Below are positions 18,952-64,000 of a stretch of 64,000 nt of DNA, in pieces (position 1 is the stretch's first letter; every line of letters starts with the position of its first letter). Source of the stretch: Candidatus Saccharimonadota bacterium. Lineage in GTDB: Bacteria > Patescibacteriota > Saccharimonadia > Saccharimonadales > Saccharimonadaceae. The DNA lies in assembly GCA_017514045.1 (NCBI GenBank), contig JAFWLS010000024.1, positions 14,705 through 78,704 of the forward strand, given 5' to 3'. The notes below the pieces were generated by a model. That model saw only the letters and a list, made by a program, of their open reading frames with translations, was not told the DNA's origin and searched no databases. A program made the translations under genes and the position numbers.

Positions 18952-19152
18952 TTATTTAGAGCTAAGGTGCCAATGATCGCCGAACTCGCATTTGTAAACC
19001 GTCAACCCTTGTACATTATGGTCGTGTTCAGCTACGCGCGCTGCTACTTCTGCTTCGTCGCGTGTCTTATAACAAATCTTATGTGTCTCGCCTACCCAGC
19101 AACGTTCAGGCTCAAATTTACTCAGACGATTAACGTCGAAACTTCTACTCAT
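18952..19152 (-). CDS. small conserved-looking protein (66 aa) ending YKCEFGDHWHLSS
   Basis: Its ATG overlaps the stop of the upstream giant gene (ATGAGTAG, an 8-nt overlap). The C-terminal Y-x-C-x4-WHL-S motif resembles a family of small actinobacterial and phage proteins; this is from memory, not searched. Confidence 0.5.
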   Translation of the reverse strand: MSRSFDVNRLSKFEPERCWVGETHKICYKTRDEAEVAARVAEHDHNVQGLTVYKCEFGDHWHLSSK

Positions 19153-22100
19153 TGCGAGCGATTATATCACGCCTCTTGGTCTTTATCAAACTACGCAGAG
19201 TCTTGCTACCGACAAGCGCGATTAGGATTCCAAATAGCGTAATGGCTGCGGAGAGTACATTATCTGTGATTCTGCTACTGTCACCACTCTCAGTTTGTGC
19301 AGTGAATCTACCACCAGTGTTAGGAGTCTTTAGTTTCTCCTCTTTTGACTTGTTGTAGATATTCGTGAACACCATTACTTCTACATCATCTTCACCACCG
19401 AGAATCTTCGAAACCATAGACTCGACAGTCAATTCGCCATTTTTATCCACTACGTCTATATCTACTTCGTAAATCGTCGGATCATATTCGTAATACTTCG
19501 TGCTACCTATTATCTCTGCTATCGTATAATGATAGGAGCCAACCTTCTTGAACTTAATTGGAGCGAATTCGCCTTCGCCTTCACCCGTAATCTTTATAGT
19601 CTCTATTACTTTACCTTCGCTATTCGCCAACTCAAACTTGAAGTCTTCGTCAACTGTATTCTTTTCATCAATAACTTCGACAATCTTTTGGATTCCAAAT
19701 TGTGCTTTCGTGGCGGATGCTTGATATTTGTTCTTGAATTTAAAAGTATATGCATTGCTTACTTTTTTACCGTCAACAGTAACAGTTGCTTTTAGTTGAG
19801 CCTTCTCGTAATCATCTGCTACCACGATCTTAACTTTGTACACAGTATCATCATACGTAAAACCAGATTGTCCGTCGTCGATCTCGTACACATCAAATTC
19901 AATAGTCTGTTCCTCGTCAAACACAAATTTAATTGTGTCGCTTTGACCGTTGAGCTCGGCAGTATCGATTGTATATTCTTTGTCGTTAAGAACGAATCTG
20001 AAAGTTGCATCTTTCTTAGAATTTGAAAGATCTTCTATTGTCTTCGCGATATTGAACTCGACGCTAACCGGGGCAGCGGAATATGTATTGACAATCGTCT
20101 TATCCTCTATTGAGTATTCAGCGGTTGCCTTAAGCTCGCCATTATCATCCGTCACATTTACAGTAACAACAATATCGCCAGTGGTATTTTGCATTCCGGC
20201 CGGCATCTTTCCGGTTTCGGAAATAGTGTAAGTATAGGTACCAACCTTAGTATATTCAATCTTATCGAACTTCACTGTTCTTGCATCCTTAGTCGCAGCA
20301 ATCGTTTGGTCTTCGATCCCTTCGCCAGAAAGCGTGAAGCTAAATTTGTCGCTATCTTGCCAATCACGGCCTTCGACAGCTTTAGTCGCAGAGAGTACGA
20401 TAGAGGTTTTCTTTGCTTTATAGGTGTTTTCGACTTCAATTTCCGCTATATCGGTTTTCTTGCCGTCGATTTCAATAGTATCAACATAGAGCTTTGCGCT
20501 TACAGTATCGTCTTTTACAGCTATCTTGACCTCTCTTGCCGTCGTGTCATAGCTAAAGCCTGCGTCGCTACCTTTCTTCTCGGAAACTGTATAACTATAT
20601 GTACCAGCTTTGGTGAACTTAATTGCCGCGAAGCTGTTCTCGCCGGTCAACTCTTGCGTAGAAACATCGATAGTTTCAACTGTCTCTCCACCAGAATCTT
20701 TAAGTTCAAAGGTGAAGCTGCCATCTTTCTGAGAATTGCTCAGATCTTTAATAGACTTCTTGACGTATATCACGGTATCAGTTGGCTGAGTTGTATATTC
20801 GTTCACGATAGTTTGGTTTTTTACGGAATAGCTGGCTGTGGCTTTGAGTTCGCCAGCTTTATCTTCTACAGTTACTGTGACCTCGATATCGCCAGTAGTA
20901 TTTTGCATCCCAGCCGGCAAATCGCTAGTTTCGGAAATTATATAACTATATGTACCAATCTTAGTATATTCAATCGCGTCGAATGTGACAGTCTTCTCGC
21001 CCTTAGTTGCAGCAATCGTTTGCTCGGCTATTCCAGCGCCAGATAGTGTAAACTCAAACCTATCATCGTCTTTCCAGCTACGTCCTCTAATTTCTTTAGT
21101 CGCAGAGAGCTCGATAGAGGTTTTCTTAGCCTCATAAGTGTTCCTAATCTCAATCTGGATTTCGTTGGTTTCTACGCCGTCAATCTTAATGGTTTCGATA
21201 TATAGCTGGGCTTCTTCTTTATTGTCTTTGACGACAATTTCAACATTCCTAGGCGTCGTGTCGTAGCTAAAGCCAGTCTCATTACCCTTGCGTTCGTTAA
21301 CAGTATAATTATATGTGCCCTCTTTGCTAAGCTCTAATGTCTCGAAGCTTCCTTCGCCAGTTAAATCATGTGTAGAAATAGTAATCGTGTCTTCGATGTC
21401 TCCGTCAGCGTTCTTTAGATCGAAGGTAAAGCGGCCATCTTTCTTCGAATCACTTACGTCATCTATCGTCTTTCTAACTTTAATCGTGGCGTCTGTCGGC
21501 TTGGTTTCGTACGTGTTTTCAATCGTTTCTGTTTCTCCTTGGGTTACAGTTGCGACCAATGCGCCATTATTATTGTCTACCACGGAAACTTTAACAACGA
21601 TCGGTTCGGTTGTGACTTGTGAGATGCCCGGACGAGTAAATTGAGTGTCCTCAGTGATTGTATATTCGTAGTTGCCAGGGGTATCGTACTCGAGCATAAA
21701 GGTAGCGGTTTTATTGAGTTCATTGACGGTTTTTATTTGTTTGACCGAACCATCTTTACTTTCTAGCGTAAATGTAAATGAATCACCTTCATACCAGTAG
21801 TCTTTAAAGTCTTTTGTGGCCGTAACAACTGCGGTAGCAGGCTCGACGCTATACTCATTTGTAAAGTCTGCCGTGTCCACCTCTTTACCGTTAATCTTCA
21901 TCTCGGAAGAAAGTGTTGCAGTCGTGTAGTCTTCAGTCACAACAATCTCTACCTCATAGGACGTGTCATCATAAGACCAGCCACCTTTTCCTTCATTCTT
22001 CTCAGACACGGTATAACGATAGGTGCCGGCAGTGTCGAAGTTCAAGGTCTTGAAACTGCCTTCGCCACTCAAATTGCTCGTAGTGAAGGAGATAGTATCG

Positions 22101-25100
22101 ATTACATTGCCACTTGCGTCTTTAAGCTCAAATGTGAATTTATCATTATGATTGCCAGTAACCATATCGATTACTGTCTTTGCGACATTAATAGTTTCAG
22201 AAACAGTACCTTGCGTTTCGTAAGTATTATCAATCGTTGCATTATCTTCGGTAACGTTTGTAGAGTTTTTGTTATAAGTCTTTTCGACCGTCATAGTGCC
22301 ATCGCCATTATCGGTCGCCTTAACTGTCAATAAGACCTTCTCATTTTCAGTAAGAGGGAAGACACCAGGATGATCGTATTCTTTCTCAGTAATCTCATAT
22401 GTCCAGGTACCTTCGTCAACAATCTTAAATGTCCAGCTAGCCGGAGTAAGTTGAGTCGCAGTGTTATTGGCAGAAGTTATCTCAGGGAATGATCCAGTAG
22501 TTGTAGTCTTCGGAGTAAGCTCAAAATCGAACCCATTAATCCTGGTCAAATCCCAATAGTTGCCAAACATTTTAGCAACTTTCGCTTGAGTGCTATTTGG
22601 TTCAACTTTATATGTATTTAAGAAACTTGCTTCTGAAAGTTTGTTTTTTATGATATCACCCTTATCGCCAGTCGAAGTAGTCGTAAATCCTTGCATACTA
22701 GTTTCGGTAATTTCATAGTAGGTTCCTGCCGGTATGCCGGTGATAGTTTCACTTTCGCCATTCTTTAAGGTGACCGTCTTCGAGTAGTCGGACAACTCTT
22801 CGGTCTTAGTTTCATCAGTATAGACTTTAATATCAAATTCAAATTCATTACTTTTGGCTTTTGCTTCATTGCCACTTTCGACCTCTACCGCCTTGGAGAC
22901 TTTGAGATCGCCTGCAAGGTAATTATTTATAACCGTAGCTCTTGACGAAGAATTAGCTTGGACAGCTCTATAGTTGCCATCGATTTCTGACTGTTTGTAA
23001 GAGCCATAATTATTTGCGCCTCTCTTGATTTCATGCTTGATTTCGCTGAGCTCATACCAACTCTTCATTTCATCGGTTATTTCTTCGACTTTAAACTTAG
23101 TCCCAGTATCAACATCTATTATCATGATTTCGTCGCCAACATAGATATCGCTTTCCAAAACGCCCGTTCCCGTCATCTTGTTTGTACGGCCAGGATTGGT
23201 TGAGTCAAAATTACATTTCGCAGCGTCTGCCCCATCTTTGCTACAAGGGTTATTGTTCCCATAATAGATGCGGTAAGTATAAGGGTAGCTAGAGTCTTTG
23301 AACGAAAGCCTAACCTTGAATACTTCATCTAATTCATCGATATTCTTACCGTCTTTATCGTGGACCTCCTTAAGTATAGAGATACCACCTTTCAGAGTAT
23401 TGGTTGCAGAAAGGGAATTGAGGCTTTCGATGTCTTTTATGGCGGTTATGTTGCCGGCATTGTCGTAATCGAAGAGCACATTTTTAATCACGCCATTTAC
23501 GATCATTGGATGATATTCATACTTTGTAAGATAGTAATGGCTTGTAATGTCTTGCTCGTCGAGATAGTACCTATGACCTTGCTCGAGTATTACATATTCA
23601 TGACCATCAAAACTCAAAGTTTCGTATTCTTCACCCTGAACGGCTTTACTGGTCGAATAGACCATCACGCCAGGAGCGATTGAATAATCTTTTTCAGAAC
23701 TCCACCCGTTATCCTTAGACAGCTCGTAAGTTTCGACGATTGTATTGTCTTTGTACAAATCTAGCGTGACTTTTCCACCGTAGTCATTTTGTTGATCAGA
23801 ATCGAGATCGTCCTCCCATTTTTTCTTCACGGTCAAGTTACCAGAGTACAGATCAACTGGGTCTGGGTTGTCAATATTTTTGGTGACAGGATCAGACACT
23901 ACCGTGGTAGTCTGACCATTAACTGTCGTTGTTGTTATTGTGGAATAAGTAACAGTCGGGAAGTCCGTATTTGTTTTGAGGGTATAATTCCCATCCGAAC
24001 CGGCAATCTGAGCCTTCTGTACCGAGGTTAATTCGTCATAATCAATCAAGCCATTGTTAAGATCGGAGACAAGATCAAGAGAATTCTGTTTTGGCCACAC
24101 CGAAAAGGCGACGGTGTAAGTTACACCATTTTCGAGAACCAAATCCCCAAGTCTCCAATCAACTTCGCCTTTATTATTAATAGTAGCTTTTGGCGCATCA
24201 GCCCACTCTTCACCAAGCCCATCGTTTGCAGTTGTACTATATTGGCCACCACTACGATAATATCTCAATCCTCTAACCTCACCATTTGTGCTCGTCTTGA
24301 CACTGGAATCGGTCATAGCCGTCACGCCGTCGGTAAGTTCCACATTTGTATAGCCAACACCAGTTGTAATGTCGTTTACAATTTGTTTAAGAGCTGCAAT
24401 AAGCGTTTCTGTGCTACTCGCATTGGTGTAGTAGTCATTATAGGCGCTATTCAGTGGAGTATTATAAGCGCCAGCGCCAGTGTAGGCGTATTGGACGAGC
24501 GCTTTGAGATACCCCTCATAATCGGAGTCGCCCCAAGTAAAAAGGCCATAGAAGGTGTCACCATCTACGACGAGATCCCTTGCATTGTCGCTCGCAGATC
24601 CCCAACGGGCAATCCACCCAGTATTCCCAGTTGCTCCGTTGGAAACAGTATAATCATTATTAGCGGTTGACGGCTGGCCATCCGTCAAAAACAGCACATA
24701 TATGTCTTCATTGGGTTGTGTCGATCTTATACTATCAGCCAATTCATCAGCGCGAATCAGAGCCTCCTCCCAGTTCGTGCCAGAATCAGTCGCTAGACTC
24801 GTAATCTTGCTCTTTAAAACACTGGAATTAGTCGTAAAACCTTGTTGCGTTATACCTTTCTGTCCAAAATTTACTAAAGCAACTTCTATAATATCGCTCT
24901 TGTTTGCATCCCCAGGCACATTTTGGGATAAGAGATTATCGATTATCCCGTTCTCATCTATAAGTGCATGCTTTTCGGCCCACAGACGGCTTCTGGCATA
25001 AAAATCGCCAGTATAAGGGTTCGAATAATTGTAGCCGCCTGGCCCACCTTGCGTTCTCGTAGCATACCAAGTGCCGTTATTGTAGTAGAGCTCACGATAG

Positions 25101-47577: not shown

Positions 47578-50500
47578 ATGAAGATAAAAAACACGATTCT
47601 TTCTTTATGGGGAAAGTTAATTAATGCAAAGAAGATATTATTATTCAGTGGCTTAGCAGTTCTGGCAATTTTTGGAATCAGCAGAATACCAGGTTTTGCT
47701 GCTACATCGGACGAGTCAACTAATCTTAGAGTTAAAATGCAGAGAATCGTCCAAGAAGTTGCCATGGCGTACTACAGGAAAGGTCAGAAGATAGAGTACG
47801 ACTCCTGGCGTCGCAATGATCGTATTTCGCCCGAACAGATTACTAGTCAAAACGTCAGCTATATGGTATGCTCTGGCTTTACCGCCTCGGTATATAAGGA
47901 AGCCTTCGATGTAAATGTCCCATCCACAACACAAAGAATCAAAAGTTATGCCGCAAGTTTAGCTGATGAGGGTAATCTCAAGAAAATATCAGATCACGAA
48001 TACACTGGTACTAGAGCTCATGGCGAGATAGCCTATTATACCGACGATTTTCACGGCGTTCGCCTTGTTGGTAGTAGCAGCAACGAAGGAGATCTTGCCA
48101 AACGCAAAGCATACCGCGAGAAGATACTTAACCTTCTCGAGCCAGGCGATGTGATATCGACGTTTGGCAAATACTATGATAACAGTACTACTGGACACGC
48201 AATGTTAGTTTATAAGATTATCGAACGAAATGGTAAAAGAGTTAATGCGGTACTCCTCAATTCAAATGGCCAAACAACATACAACAATAACAACATCACA
48301 AAAGGCATTAAGATTACTGAGAAAAGCGTACTTATAGATGACTCTGAATTTGCTTCAAATACCTTTAAAGAGGGAACTGTATATACGCACTACCTGTTTG
48401 ATGACGGAGATGACATTCATTCTATCAGCGACAACACTTTCGAAAATGCTGATTTTAACAATGGTATTATAGGTACTTCAAAAGCCCACTTTACCGTCTT
48501 GAGAATGTTATGGAACGTAGGCGACACAGAGGGCACTATTGCCGACATTCTTTGCGCTGGTAGCTGCTTTCAAAATGAGAATCTTAAGCATATATCGCTT
48601 TCCGACTTATCCGAAATCCCGAGTAGATCATTAGTTAGACTAAGCTACCCAGGCATTCAAATAGAGAAGACTGTAGATGTTCATAATGGCAGTACAGTTT
48701 CACGCGGCGACCAGCTAACATATACTATTACTATAAAAAACAACTCTGGACAGAAATATTCAAACATAGCAGTCGCCGAGTACTTTGATACCAGTTTAGT
48801 AGAATTTGTCTCAGCGGGCGAATCAGCAACGAGAGACGGAGGAACAATAACCTGGAGTAATGTTAGCGTCGCAAAAGGCGCCACTAAAACTATTACATAT
48901 ATCGTGAAGGTTAAGGATAACGTTGCCTACGGCCAGACTATCGAATCCACTGGTAGCGTTGCTGGTATTCCGTCTACTACAGTCAGTAATACAATTAACG
49001 AAAAACTCACCAGCAGCGAAAAGAATGATATCAAGACAATATACAATAGCGTTAAAACCAGTAAAAACGGCATAGCGCTTATTAAGGAAGTGTACAAAAA
49101 TGTCGATCCAACCTTCGTCCAAGCACTAGAAGATGTTAATCTCGAAGAACTGCTGGGTTATCAATACGACAAAAATTATGACTGCGTGATCCCGAGTGGG
49201 GTTGCTATTTCTGCTGCGGATTATGGCAATATGTTGATTACTCCAAGAAAAAGAAGCTCAAAGTACACCTATTCGACTTCCATCAATGATAAGCCAGTCG
49301 TCAACTCGAGCAACATTTTCTCCGTGAAGGTCTTTAACAATTATTATTCAATGTTACATGATCTATATATGCTCACTTCAACCTCACCTCAATTATGCGT
49401 CAGCAATGCTCAGCAACTAGCATGGCAACGCGCTACTACTGCAAGCGTAGATGCTAACGGTAACATAATAATAATAGACTTCTCAACCGGCGCGAATAAA
49501 CGCTCTGACCGCCAAGTACGTGTGTATCCAGAGACTCTTCAAACTGGCGATGTTCTACTATATAGGAATAACAACGATACGCGAAAAAAGATTGACAGTA
49601 CGGCAGAGGCTGGAGATGGAGAAGATGATGACACCTCGCAAGGCGACTCCAGCACAGTCACACCTTATTGGGAGAGGCGTGGTCTAGAGAACGGATTCTA
49701 TGCCTATGTATATTTGGAAAACGGTAGCAAAGGAGCAGGCTTCTATGGCGGTACGTACAATATGAGACGAGCAAAGATCGTGGATGAATCCATTGTTGCT
49801 TATAATGGCACCAAGACGGACAAGTACGAAAGATTTATTTCGGCAGACAACACTAAAGACAGCGACACTCTTCAGTCTCTCTTCTCAAAAGATTACTACG
49901 TAATTCTTCGCCCATCGATCAGACAATCACAGATTGTGACCTTTACTGATCCGACCGCCACAGTTTCCAAAGCCGTGGGCGGCGACACTACGTTCACTAA
50001 CGCTGCCACCACGACCGGCGATGGCACGATTAGCTACGAATCGGGCAATAGTGATGTTGCGACCGTCAACAATAGTGGCAAGGTGACAATTCGCGGTGCG
50101 GGCCAGACAACCATCACGGCGACAGCATCGAAGACCTTTAAATATGCCTTGGCTTCGAAATCTTATTCACTAGTCGTCAATAAAGCGAGTCAAGTCGTCT
50201 CCTTCGCACAAACATCAGTAAATAAATATCTTGGCGATGAGCCATTCACGAATCTCGCCACCACTACGGGCGATGGAACAATCTCCTACAGATCGAATAA
50301 AACCAGCGTCGCGACTGTTGATGCAAACACCGGTTTAGTCACCATTGTTGGCGTCGGCAAAGCTACCATTACTGCCACGGCAGCCGAGAGCGACAACTAC
50401 TTGTCCGCTTCCAAATCATACACACTTACAGTTTCCAACAAGCCTACCCAGACTGTATCATTTGTTAGTTCGTCAGTAGAAAAAGATCTTGGCGATGAGC

Positions 50501-52164
50501 CATTCACGAATCTCGCCACCACTACCGGTGATGGCGAGATCACTTATAGCTCGGATAATACTAATGTCGCTACAGTTGATGCGAGCACCGGCTTAGTCAC
50601 AATCGTTGGTGCCGGAAGCGCCACCATCACTGCAACCGCAGCGGAAACCGCCAATTACGCCGCTTCTTCCGAATCCTACATTCTTACCGTCACGACCAAA
50701 CAACTCCAAACCATTACTTTCGAAAATGCGTCAGTACAAAAAGTTTTCGGAGACGCTCCATTCACGAATCTCGCCACTACTACGGGCGACGGAGCAATCA
50801 CATATAGATCTAGCAAGACTAGCGTCGCGACAATCGATAGCAACACGGGTCTAATTACGATCGTTGGCGTTGGAAGAACTACAATCACCGCCACGGCCGC
50901 CGAAACAGAAACCTACGCTCCAGCATCCAAGTCATTCGTGCTAACCGTAACAAAGGCTACTCAGACAATCGTTTTTGATAGCGCATCCGTCCAAGTTACC
51001 GTCGACGCTAATCCGTTCACAAATACTGCTACAGCTAGCGACGGCGGAACAATTACATACAGCCTAGACAACACGAATGTGGCTACGATTAATGAAGAGA
51101 CCGGCGAAGTAACTATTGTCGGTGCTGGCACTACTACTATCACTGCCACCGCCACAGAAACCGATAATTTCGCTTCGGTATCTAATTCTTACGTACTTAC
51201 CGTCAATAAACTTTCGCAGACAGTGTCATTCAGAAAACGATCAATCAATGTATCTGTCGGGGAACCATCATTTACGAATCTCGCCACCACCACCGGCGAC
51301 GGAGCAATCGTCTATAGCTCTAGCGATACCAATGTAGCTACCATCAATGAAAACACCGGAGAAGTAACTATTGTTGGCGTTGGTGCTGCTACTATCACTG
51401 CAACCGCCGCAGAAACCAGAACTTATAATAGCGCTACTGACTCATATACTCTAAGAGTTCATGAATCTGAAGCCGACTTAGTCGTTACGCTAACTTACGA
51501 CGCTAACGGAGGCAGCTTCCCGTCCGATGCTCAAGCGACCGCCACCTGCGTACTTGAGGATGAAGATTGCAGTATGATAATATCTGATCTCGAACCAACG
51601 AAAGAAGGCTATATCTTCCTCGGCTGGTCTGAATCTAGGAATGCTACCGAATATCTCTATAGACCAGGAAACACAATTATACTCGTAGGTAACACAACTA
51701 TTTATGCTATTTGGTCAGATGGGGAGTTGGTCTGGATAGACGGGTCAGAATATACAATCGGAAGCGAACAAGGTCTCGTATTGAAGATTGACCATCCAAT
51801 ATCCGCATTTAGAAGGATTCTAGTGGATGATAGAACTGTCGACACGAAAAATTATACAGCCGAATCTGGCAGCACTATCATTACCCTCTCACCAGAATTC
51901 CTCGGCACTCTCTCTGTCGGCGAACATTCTATTCGAGCAATCTTTAATAATGATGTATCCGTATCATCCTCCTTTAGCGTAATCCGAGGCGAAGATCTCG
52001 CTCCTGCAACTCCTGATACCGGAGTAAATAACTCCGACGATAAGGGTTCTTCTATCGGCGTAGTTATCGGACTACCAACCATCGCCATGTTAGCAGCAGT
52101 CATACTATTCTTTAGAAGAAAAAACCATTCATTCTTAAGAGGAGAAATCGATTTTCTCCCATAA
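47578..52164 (+). CDS. giant surface protein: signal/anchor, papain-like (NlpC/P60-type) domain, DUF11-like repeat, six Ig-like repeats, Listeria-Bacteroides repeat, TPDTG tail
   Basis: ATG 47578 follows aaagg and gives MKIKNTILSLWGKLINAKKILLFSGLAVLAIFG. The ORF is open from TTG 47524. See the domain features below. Confidence 0.8.
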   Translation: MKIKNTILSLWGKLINAKKILLFSGLAVLAIFGISRIPGFAATSDESTNLRVKMQRIVQEVAMAYYRKGQKIEYDSWRRNDRISPEQITSQNVSYMVCSGFTASVYKEAFDVNVPSTTQRIKSYAASLADEGNLKKISDHEYTGTRAHGEIAYYTDDFHGVRLVGSSSNEGDLAKRKAYREKILNLLEPGDVISTFGKYYDNSTTGHAMLVYKIIERNGKRVNAVLLNSNGQTTYNNNNITKGIKITEKSVLIDDSEFASNTFKEGTVYTHYLFDDGDDIHSISDNTFENADFNNGIIGTSKAHFTVLRMLWNVGDTEGTIADILCAGSCFQNENLKHISLSDLSEIPSRSLVRLSYPGIQIEKTVDVHNGSTVSRGDQLTYTITIKNNSGQKYSNIAVAEYFDTSLVEFVSAGESATRDGGTITWSNVSVAKGATKTITYIVKVKDNVAYGQTIESTGSVAGIPSTTVSNTINEKLTSSEKNDIKTIYNSVKTSKNGIALIKEVYKNVDPTFVQALEDVNLEELLGYQYDKNYDCVIPSGVAISAADYGNMLITPRKRSSKYTYSTSINDKPVVNSSNIFSVKVFNNYYSMLHDLYMLTSTSPQLCVSNAQQLAWQRATTASVDANGNIIIIDFSTGANKRSDRQVRVYPETLQTGDVLLYRNNNDTRKKIDSTAEAGDGEDDDTSQGDSSTVTPYWERRGLENGFYAYVYLENGSKGAGFYGGTYNMRRAKIVDESIVAYNGTKTDKYERFISADNTKDSDTLQSLFSKDYYVILRPSIRQSQIVTFTDPTATVSKAVGGDTTFTNAATTTGDGTISYESGNSDVATVNNSGKVTIRGAGQTTITATASKTFKYALASKSYSLVVNKASQVVSFAQTSVNKYLGDEPFTNLATTTGDGTISYRSNKTSVATVDANTGLVTIVGVGKATITATAAESDNYLSASKSYTLTVSNKPTQTVSFVSSSVEKDLGDEPFTNLATTTGDGEITYSSDNTNVATVDASTGLVTIVGAGSATITATAAETANYAASSESYILTVTTKQLQTITFENASVQKVFGDAPFTNLATTTGDGAITYRSSKTSVATIDSNTGLITIVGVGRTTITATAAETETYAPASKSFVLTVTKATQTIVFDSASVQVTVDANPFTNTATASDGGTITYSLDNTNVATINEETGEVTIVGAGTTTITATATETDNFASVSNSYVLTVNKLSQTVSFRKRSINVSVGEPSFTNLATTTGDGAIVYSSSDTNVATINENTGEVTIVGVGAATITATAAETRTYNSATDSYTLRVHESEADLVVTLTYDANGGSFPSDAQATATCVLEDEDCSMIISDLEPTKEGYIFLGWSESRNATEYLYRPGNTIILVGNTTIYAIWSDGELVWIDGSEYTIGSEQGLVLKIDHPISAFRRILVDDRTVDTKNYTAESGSTIITLSPEFLGTLSVGEHSIRAIFNNDVSVSSSFSVIRGEDLAPATPDTGVNNSDDKGSSIGVVIGLPTIAMLAAVILFFRRKNHSFLRGEIDFLP
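47740..48260 (+). other. papain-like cysteine peptidase/amidase-like domain (NlpC/P60 superfamily-like)
   Basis: Candidate nucleophile in YMVCSGFTASVY (Cys codon 47869-47871) and candidate His in GDVISTF...TTGHAMLVY (His codon 48196-48198). Confidence 0.45.
49930..51460 (+). repeat. six tandem ~85-aa (~255-bp) Ig-like (Big_2-type) coding repeats
   Basis: Each unit reads Q-[TVI]-[VI]-[STV]-F...FTN.ATTTGDG.I.Y.S....VAT[VI][DN]..TG.VTIVG.G..TITATAAE...Y...S.S[YF].L.V. Confidence 0.85.
52009..52023 (+). other. TPDTG pentapeptide (LPXTG-like sorting motif variant)
   Basis: act cct gat acc gga, followed by a 10-aa spacer, then IGVVIGLPTIAMLAAVILFF, then RRKNH. Confidence 0.5.
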
Positions 52165-63964: not shown

Positions 63965-64000
63965 ATTAGTATCGCAGAAATACACTCTTTACTACACTCT

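Follow-up and report, generated by a model that had tools for sequence, protein, structure and literature searches.

The window analysed here, a stretch of 64,000 nucleotides (nt) from contig JAFWLS010000024.1 of the Candidatus Saccharimonadota assembly GCA_017514045.1 (positions 14,705 to 78,704 of the forward strand), encodes two giant surface proteins, P0001 and P0002, whose C-termini resemble the sorting signals recognised by sortases: a pentapeptide, a spacer, a hydrophobic segment and a basic tail. The pentapeptides are TPNTG and TPDTG, and a first-pass annotation of the window had taken the Thr in place of the Leu of LPXTG as the mark of a lineage-specific sortase motif. The contig (C21) belongs to an 845-kb genome with a G+C content of 43.8% and a completeness of 98.6%. 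We describe the two C-termini, the genus-wide signal class to which they belong, which is very probably of the sortase type, and the two sortases that could act on it.

The P0001 gene (19145..25465, minus strand) encodes, by translation, a secreted adhesin-like protein of 2106 amino acids (aa) with an N-terminal signal peptide, a vWA domain, nine FctA/Spy0128 isopeptide domains, DUF7601 and the C-terminal sorting signal. Its N-terminus, MKLKKKLFNFLAALIVVFGSMPFSFVANAYA, reads as a Sec signal peptide by inspection. The last 61 codons coincide exactly with window positions 19148-19330, as first annotated, and their translation runs from EEKLK into the TPNTG pentapeptide (residues 2047-2051; 19313..19327, minus), the predicted sortase recognition site, with the scissile bond expected between T2050 and G2051. 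The pentapeptide is followed by a hydrophilic spacer of 19 aa, GRFTAQTESGDSSRITDNV (19256..19312, minus), a hydrophobic membrane-retention segment of 16 residues, LSAAITLFGILIALVG (19208..19255, minus), whose mean Kyte-Doolittle hydropathy is 2.61 in the best 15-aa window, and a basic cytoplasmic tail of 20 aa with 6 K/R, SKTLRSLIKTKRRDIIARNE (19148..19207, minus), before the stop. The spacer is thus slightly longer than was first counted (18 aa after KTPNTGG, not 17, or 19 from the G of TPNTG), and KTKRRD, placed by that count directly after the hydrophobic segment, lies inside the 20-aa tail. The closest homologue, P0003, is annotated as a VWA domain-containing protein of Candidatus Saccharibacteria bacterium and is 62% identical; its signal consists of KTPDTG, 17 aa, a hydrophobic segment and then RHDIIARNE, and its tail, NKNLRGLIRAKRHDIIARNE, matches that of P0001.

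P0002 (47578..52164, plus strand) is a surface protein of about 1528 aa, read from the ATG at 47578 to the stop at 52164, with a database copy, P0242, of 1528 aa. It carries six Big_2 domains, DUF11, Flg_new (Listeria-Bacteroides repeat) and the C-terminal sorting signal, a set unrelated to that of P0001, which upholds the original view of two unrelated proteins. The N-terminus, MKIKNTILSLWGKLINAKKILLFSGLAVLAIFG, is by inspection a Sec signal peptide. At the other end, the translation passes from LAPA into TPDTG (52009..52023, plus), and the remainder of the signal (52024..52161, plus) comprises a spacer of about 10 aa, VNNSDDKGSS, the hydrophobic segment IGVVIGLPTIAMLAAVILFF and the tail RRKNHSFLRGEIDFLP, with RRKNH as its basic end, so that translation of both C-termini bears out the tripartite layout claimed for them. 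The closest orthologue of P0002, P0243, is 61% identical and has IPDTG at the motif site, followed by a conserved spacer (ANSSNDKGSS). On the LPXTG_anchor model TIGR01167 the P0002 tail scores 20.8 bits vs a cut-off of 15.9; on the Rumino_NPXTG anchor model NF033846 it scores 13.3 bits vs a cut-off of 23.5. The P0001 and C17 tails have no match on the curated anchor hidden Markov models (HMMs) TIGR01167 and PF00746.

A proteome of about 764 non-overlapping open reading frame (ORF) products, genes being approximated by ORFs, was assembled genome-wide, and the C-terminal anchors in it fall into three kinds: a long-spacer class that includes P0001 and P0002, a canonical LPSTG class, and a class marked by PLGV. 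The long-spacer class has nine members, each with xP[ND][TS]G, a hydrophilic spacer of 11-19 aa (about 10 in P0002), a hydrophobic segment and a basic tail. Besides the TPNTG of P0001 and the TPDTG of P0002, the motifs are KPNTG, APNSG, VPNTG (three times), VPDTG and APNTG, which gives V 4, T 2, A 2 and K 1 at position 1. The canonical class consists of three proteins, in which LPSTG is followed 3-4 residues later by the hydrophobic segment. The domains of the long-spacer carriers are typical of wall proteins (S8 subtilase, TQ-ester with SpaA, Flg_new, Fib_succ_major, Big_2, vWA/FctA), and the other seven carriers begin, as signal peptides do, with a basic and then a hydrophobic stretch; signal peptides were judged by eye throughout, without a dedicated predictor. 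Two further proteins end right after the motif with no membrane segment, one in KVPDTGIVKE (C21:106771-108480, outside the window; L076:2380-2480) and one in TVPNTGFKF (L100 of the related genome G010). These could be signals in decay, or forms that are secreted and evade retention.

When every 4-mer was scored without bias for enrichment 35-65 aa from C-termini, PNTG ranked first, with 6 of its 7 occurrences in the zone (P=4e-6); the runner-up reached P=3e-4. For P[ND]TG, 8 of 10 occurrences fall in the same zone (expected 0.9; binomial P=2e-7). The first-pass annotation had argued that the motif recurs beyond chance, and this holds for P[ND]TG and fails for TP.TG alone, which shows no significant enrichment near C-termini (2/5 occurrences in the zone, P=0.12) and was rejected as the motif in favour of P[ND]TG.

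Conservation was followed with a profile built from this genome's nine tails, which is biased towards N/D at position 3 and tends to miss divergent versions; of 18 genomes from the genus, 17 gave a match, and the tails that were read out carried the class. The remaining genome, G010, was set aside as a counter-example when a codon-pattern scan recovered long-spacer tails with TPDTG, VPNTG and SPNTG, bringing the number of species of the genus in which the class is seen to 18. Across an order-wide sample of 150 genomes from 120 genera, matches at E<=1e-3 occurred in 5 genera, 2 of them weak or containing stops. As far as these profile surveys of relatives reach, the signal class is concentrated in one genus of rumen-associated Candidatus Saccharibacteria, as the proposal of a lineage-specific motif would have it. 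For both P0001 and the sortase, the nearest homologues carry the label Candidatus Saccharibacteria bacterium, and the sole named close relative is Candidatus Saccharibacteria bacterium RGIG7994, a metagenome-assembled genome from water buffalo rumen.

Among 39 distinct signals collected from the genus, position 1 is V16, A10, T5, K2, S2, L1, N1, R1 and P1, position 3 is N18, D17, E2, T1 and G1, and position 4 is T37 and S2; P and G are present in 39/39, a count imposed by the extraction, so that the count for T alone is free of ascertainment. Because the orthologues P0003 (TPDTG) and P0243 (IPDTG) keep P[ND]TG while position 1 changes, the Thr at position 1 is incidental, and the constrained unit is P-[N/D]-T-G plus a long spacer. 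The substitution of Thr for Leu, offered at first as the defining feature, does not survive the variation at that position (V, A, T, K and others, with I in P0243). The spacer sequence is itself kept among orthologues, as in the LNIS[KR]xDY of a 318-aa family.

The distinctive feature of the genus signals is the length of the spacer, not the non-Leu first residue. By one and the same metric, its median in the genus is 16 aa (interquartile range 13-17, n=36) vs 8 aa (n=39) in xPxTG homologues from other phyla (Mann-Whitney P=3.6e-12), and the genus's own LPxTG signals have spacers of 1-4 aa; two clearly separate signal classes therefore exist within one genome. The comparison set consisted of 120 homologues of the P0001 C-terminal region, with Olsenella, Clostridia, Collinsella, Enterococcus and Streptococcus among the names, together with many metagenome proteins. 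These homologues end in TPKTG (Olsenella), PPKTG, TPPTG, KPDTG, GPFTG, VPQTG, IPQTG, NPETG, LPYTG and LPNTG, and Leu is first in just 10 of 39 distinct xPxTG tails, so that a non-Leu first residue is common in the adhesin family of P0001.

Many of the P0001 homologues P0004-P0035 and P0045-P0048 end instead in NPRT[NDLHY]DD, NPQTSDD, PPVTNDS or TPYTYDG, followed directly by a membrane segment and GKRxLKKE. These NPxTx-type endings do not have the Gly at position 5, and at least one carrier (P0034) is labelled Candidatus Saccharibacteria. NPQTN is a signal of the sortase B type, which the endings recall, and this suggests a third sorting specificity in other Saccharibacteria.

The window contains no sortase gene, as first reported, and the lack of any sortase homologue in the genome had been named beforehand as grounds for giving up the idea. 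That ground falls away: two genes match PF04203, with 78.5 and 57.6 bits vs a cut-off of 26.6, and both lie outside the window: one encodes a sortase of 418 aa (C16:86650-87906) and the other a sortase of 256 aa (C10:11354-12124). At least one sortase is present in each of 31 related genomes, the 418-aa type in all 31. The neighbours of both genes are housekeeping genes, with no pilin genes among them.

The 256-aa sortase scores best on the class F model NF033748, at 75.4 bits, which is below the cut-off of 166, and its orthologues are named class F sortase by NCBI. In an alignment of 35 orthologues, H163, C233 and R247 are invariant. By sequence, a search of the PDB came back nearly empty (E ~0.01); the AlphaFold model, with a mean predicted local distance difference test (pLDDT) score of 83.8, has the sortase barrel, its top Foldseek matches are all sortases with a probability of 1.00, and its best PDB matches are the actinobacterial sortases A. 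oris SrtA and T. fusca sortase E, at E ~1e-10. The enzyme has an N-terminal membrane anchor. A juxtamembrane motif, WEYxYYxEKEGSERA (residues 51-71), is nearly invariant in the 35 orthologues and shares a single model helix (residues 29-67) with the membrane segment. Over the length of the motif the pLDDT drops from about 95 to about 63, and a contact of the motif with SecY or with the substrate spacer is conceivable.

The location of this gene sets it apart. It lies directly after secY and before rpsM, rpsK, rpsD and rpoA in the ribosomal-protein operon (C10:11354-13636), in the slot usually occupied by adk and map. The close relative G008 shares the secY-sortase order (L035:11886-14186), and orthologues at 53-57% identity (L138, L140) are found in the order secY-sortase-infA-rpmJ-rpsM, with a 17-nt overlap of secY and the sortase gene at one locus.

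Three further genomes bear on the pairing of enzyme and signal. In G019, a sortase 39% identical to the 256-aa enzyme is encoded 1.9 kb away from an APNTG protein whose spacer is 14 aa long, and in G030 a related small sortase begins 25 nt after the end of an LPNTG protein whose spacer is 12 aa long. The 100% complete genome G025 has the long-type sortase only, and its signals are only short-spacer LPATG/LPNTG; it has 17 sites that code for P[ND]TG, and not one of them is of the long-spacer kind. A correlation of sortase linker length with substrate spacer length was also considered and was dropped, as the three cases available do not support it. The 418-aa sortase probably serves the three LPSTG signals, and we infer, at about even odds, that the class-F-like, secY-linked sortase of 256 aa acts on the xP[ND]TG class. 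Taken together, the reading that we consider likely is that xP[ND]TG signals are genus-wide sortase signals for which the 256-aa sortase is the most plausible enzyme.

Following the sortase family, the precursor would be exported by Sec through its N-terminal signal peptide, after which the hydrophobic segment and basic tail at its C-terminus would keep it in the membrane. The thiol of the sortase, a membrane-anchored cysteine transpeptidase, would then attack the Thr-Gly bond, and the amine of a peptidoglycan precursor would resolve the acyl-enzyme, with transfer of the Thr carboxyl, leaving the protein covalently bound to the wall. Peptidoglycan is implied as the acceptor by the two penicillin-binding protein (PBP) transpeptidase genes in the genome. 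The adhesin-like P0001 and P0002, for which a putative papain-like domain was first noted, would thereby be fixed to the wall of the epibiont. All the steps after export, cleavage and wall attachment included, are modelled on other members of the family. The long spacer may position the scissile bond for a sortase that acts at a distance from the membrane, or may discriminate between the two enzymes.

More tentatively, two parallel wall-sorting channels can be envisaged, one in which the 418-aa type would process LPxTG signals with spacers of 1-4 aa, and another in which a sortase translationally coupled to SecY within the ribosomal-protein operon would process a relaxed xP[N/D]TG about 16 residues from the membrane. 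The enzymes would then be told apart by the length of the spacer and by N/D, and not by the first residue. We regard this fuller scheme as possible and somewhat improbable.

Several observations weigh against assigning the long-spacer signals to the small sortase, or against calling them sortase signals. The P0001 tail matches neither TIGR01167 nor any NCBIfam anchor model. The motif does not stand a few residues before the hydrophobic segment, being 19 aa away in P0001 and about 10 aa in P0002, and a spacer of this length is unlike those of characterised sorting signals. A short-spacer LPNTG signal has a small sortase beside it in G027, and small sortases are therefore not tied to long spacers. 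The enzyme assignment draws on three proximity cases in other genera, one genome without the small sortase, and parsimony, and the genus survey inherits the bias of its profile. Finally, the catalytic domain of the 418-aa sortase, which follows a 190-aa N-terminal extension, is nearest to class C (70.8 bits on the NCBIfam class C model; PDB 6ixz, E=1e-14), and class C sortases accept non-Leu first residues, as in the experimentally studied pneumococcal pilins with YPRTG, IPQTG and VPDTG (PMC5640630).

The last point opens the strongest alternative, namely that the 418-aa sortase is the acting enzyme, or that both act without discrimination, and that the small secY-linked sortase has another role. 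The domain grammar of P0001, which is that of a pilus tip adhesin, fits such an assignment, as does the occurrence of the 418-aa type in all 31 relatives. Against it, the class C hallmarks are missing, with no DP[FWY] lid motif and no C-terminal hydrophobic segment in either sortase sequence; the 418-aa gene has no neighbouring pilin genes, and the backbone pilin motif V.VYPK occurs nowhere in the proteome. Moreover, where the 418-aa type is alone, in G025, so are the short-spacer LPxTG signals. On balance this alternative seems unlikely.

A pilus was considered in its own right and rejected: a search of all signal carriers for pilin and E-box motifs gave one weak WPKQ match and no backbone pilin. 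The match is VAFSVWPKQN in P0001 (residues 456-460; window 24086-24100, minus), which lies just past the vWA domain, resembles V.VYPK[NQ], and is the sole pilin-motif-like match, a weak one, among all signal-bearing proteins.

Less probable still is that the C-termini are plain membrane anchors, with P[ND]TG serving as a hinge, a turn, or a site for another protease or for glycosylation, uncut by any sortase. A spacer far longer than in characterised signals and conserved among orthologues would suit such a role, and the P0001 tail fails the LPXTG_anchor HMM; the two proteins that terminate just past the motif, lacking a membrane segment, are odd for a signal that depends on retention. These points are opposed by the coincidence of P, T and G with the three most constrained positions of LPXTG, the restriction of the motif to signal-peptide-bearing proteins and, within them, to the canonical tripartite setting, the passing score of the P0002 tail on TIGR01167, and the small sortase genes that adjoin such a protein in G030 and lie near one in G019. 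That the two window proteins came to share TP[ND]TG before a C-terminal hydrophobic segment by accident, as the insignificant count for TP.TG alone might allow, has a negligible chance of being true, since the enrichment of P[ND]TG and its conservation among orthologues and across 18 species of the genus already refute it.

The third kind of C-terminal anchor belongs to giant surface proteins that share an invariant PLGV (DPLGVTK, PPLGVKR, APLGVKK, SPLGVKR) some 25-30 aa ahead of the membrane segment at the C-terminus and a tail of the KRRKEDEEE type. One is encoded in the window (56888-63985, minus), and others in the same genome are at C8:107-6190, C2:298-5829 and C24:12882-15788, with fragments at C3:2-205 and C17:47966-48175. 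Five more are found in G008 (QPLGVRK, QPLGVNK twice, TPLGVKK, DPLGVSTSAE), whereas the remaining 29 relatives have none. PLGV may be a separate processing or sorting site, and its conservation is weak as evidence because most copies are paralogues.

Saccharibacteria live attached to host bacteria, and large surface proteins are prime candidates for host recognition. Sortases are common in bacteria of the Candidate Phyla Radiation, as is already known (PMC6744442). The literature searched, which was not exhaustive, holds no description of a Saccharibacteria sorting motif, long spacer or secY-linked sortase, nor of how Saccharibacteria surface proteins are anchored to the epibiont envelope. A defined signal class makes it possible to list the wall-anchored surface proteome, part of which, including P0001, standard LPXTG models miss. 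If spacer length does separate the substrates of the two sortases, it would be a new specificity principle that could find use in sortase-based protein ligation, and the coupling of secY to a sortase suggests that a minimal genome has made anchoring part of its core secretion operon. Two channels, if real, would amount to an undescribed rule of sortase specificity and would connect the translocon with wall anchoring directly at the genetic level.

The nearest known system is the LPXTG signal itself (TIGR01167/PF00746), with which the signals described here share the pentapeptide-hydrophobic-basic layout, the C-terminal site, the occurrence in proteins with signal peptides, Pro2, Thr4 and Gly5, and the presence of sortases and peptidoglycan enzymes in the genome, and whose TIGR01167 cut-off the P0002 tail exceeds. 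They differ in that position 1 is unconstrained (V > A > T, and others), with L found in a separate family, that position 3 is restricted to N/D, that the spacer is 11-19 aa rather than a few residues, and that the HMM misses the P0001 tail. The signals of pneumococcal pilins and class C sortases have a non-Leu first residue in common with these, VPDTG being literally among the variants here, and the vWA and isopeptide-domain grammar of P0001 is that of a pilus tip adhesin. Unlike a class C pilus system, however, this genome has no pilus gene cluster, backbone pilin motif, class C lid or C-terminal sortase anchor, and many unrelated enzymes and adhesins bear the signal, a housekeeping style of use.

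On the side of the enzyme, the 256-aa sortase is like the class F sortases (NF033748) of Actinobacteria, Chloroflexi and others in its best class score, N-terminal anchor, beta-barrel and invariant His, Cys and Arg, and its nearest solved structures include class E housekeeping sortases. It is unlike class F in its score (75 vs 166 bits), its place in the secY/ribosomal operon, its WEYxYYxEKEGSERA helix, and its likely substrates, which are long-spacer xP[ND]TG and not LPXTG. Lineage-specific replacement of Leu1 has a precedent in Clostridioides difficile, whose signals are (S/P)PXTG, and the Clostridia homologues of P0001 end in PPKTG and SPKTG. The C. difficile signals and Rumino_NPXTG (NF033846) resemble those of this genus in replacing Leu1 in LPXTG-like signals of gut and rumen bacteria; there, the first residue is fixed and the spacer short, whereas here the first residue is free and the spacer long. 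As variant LPXTG-like motifs are well known and P0002 passes TIGR01167, what is described here is a variant of a known system and not a new one.

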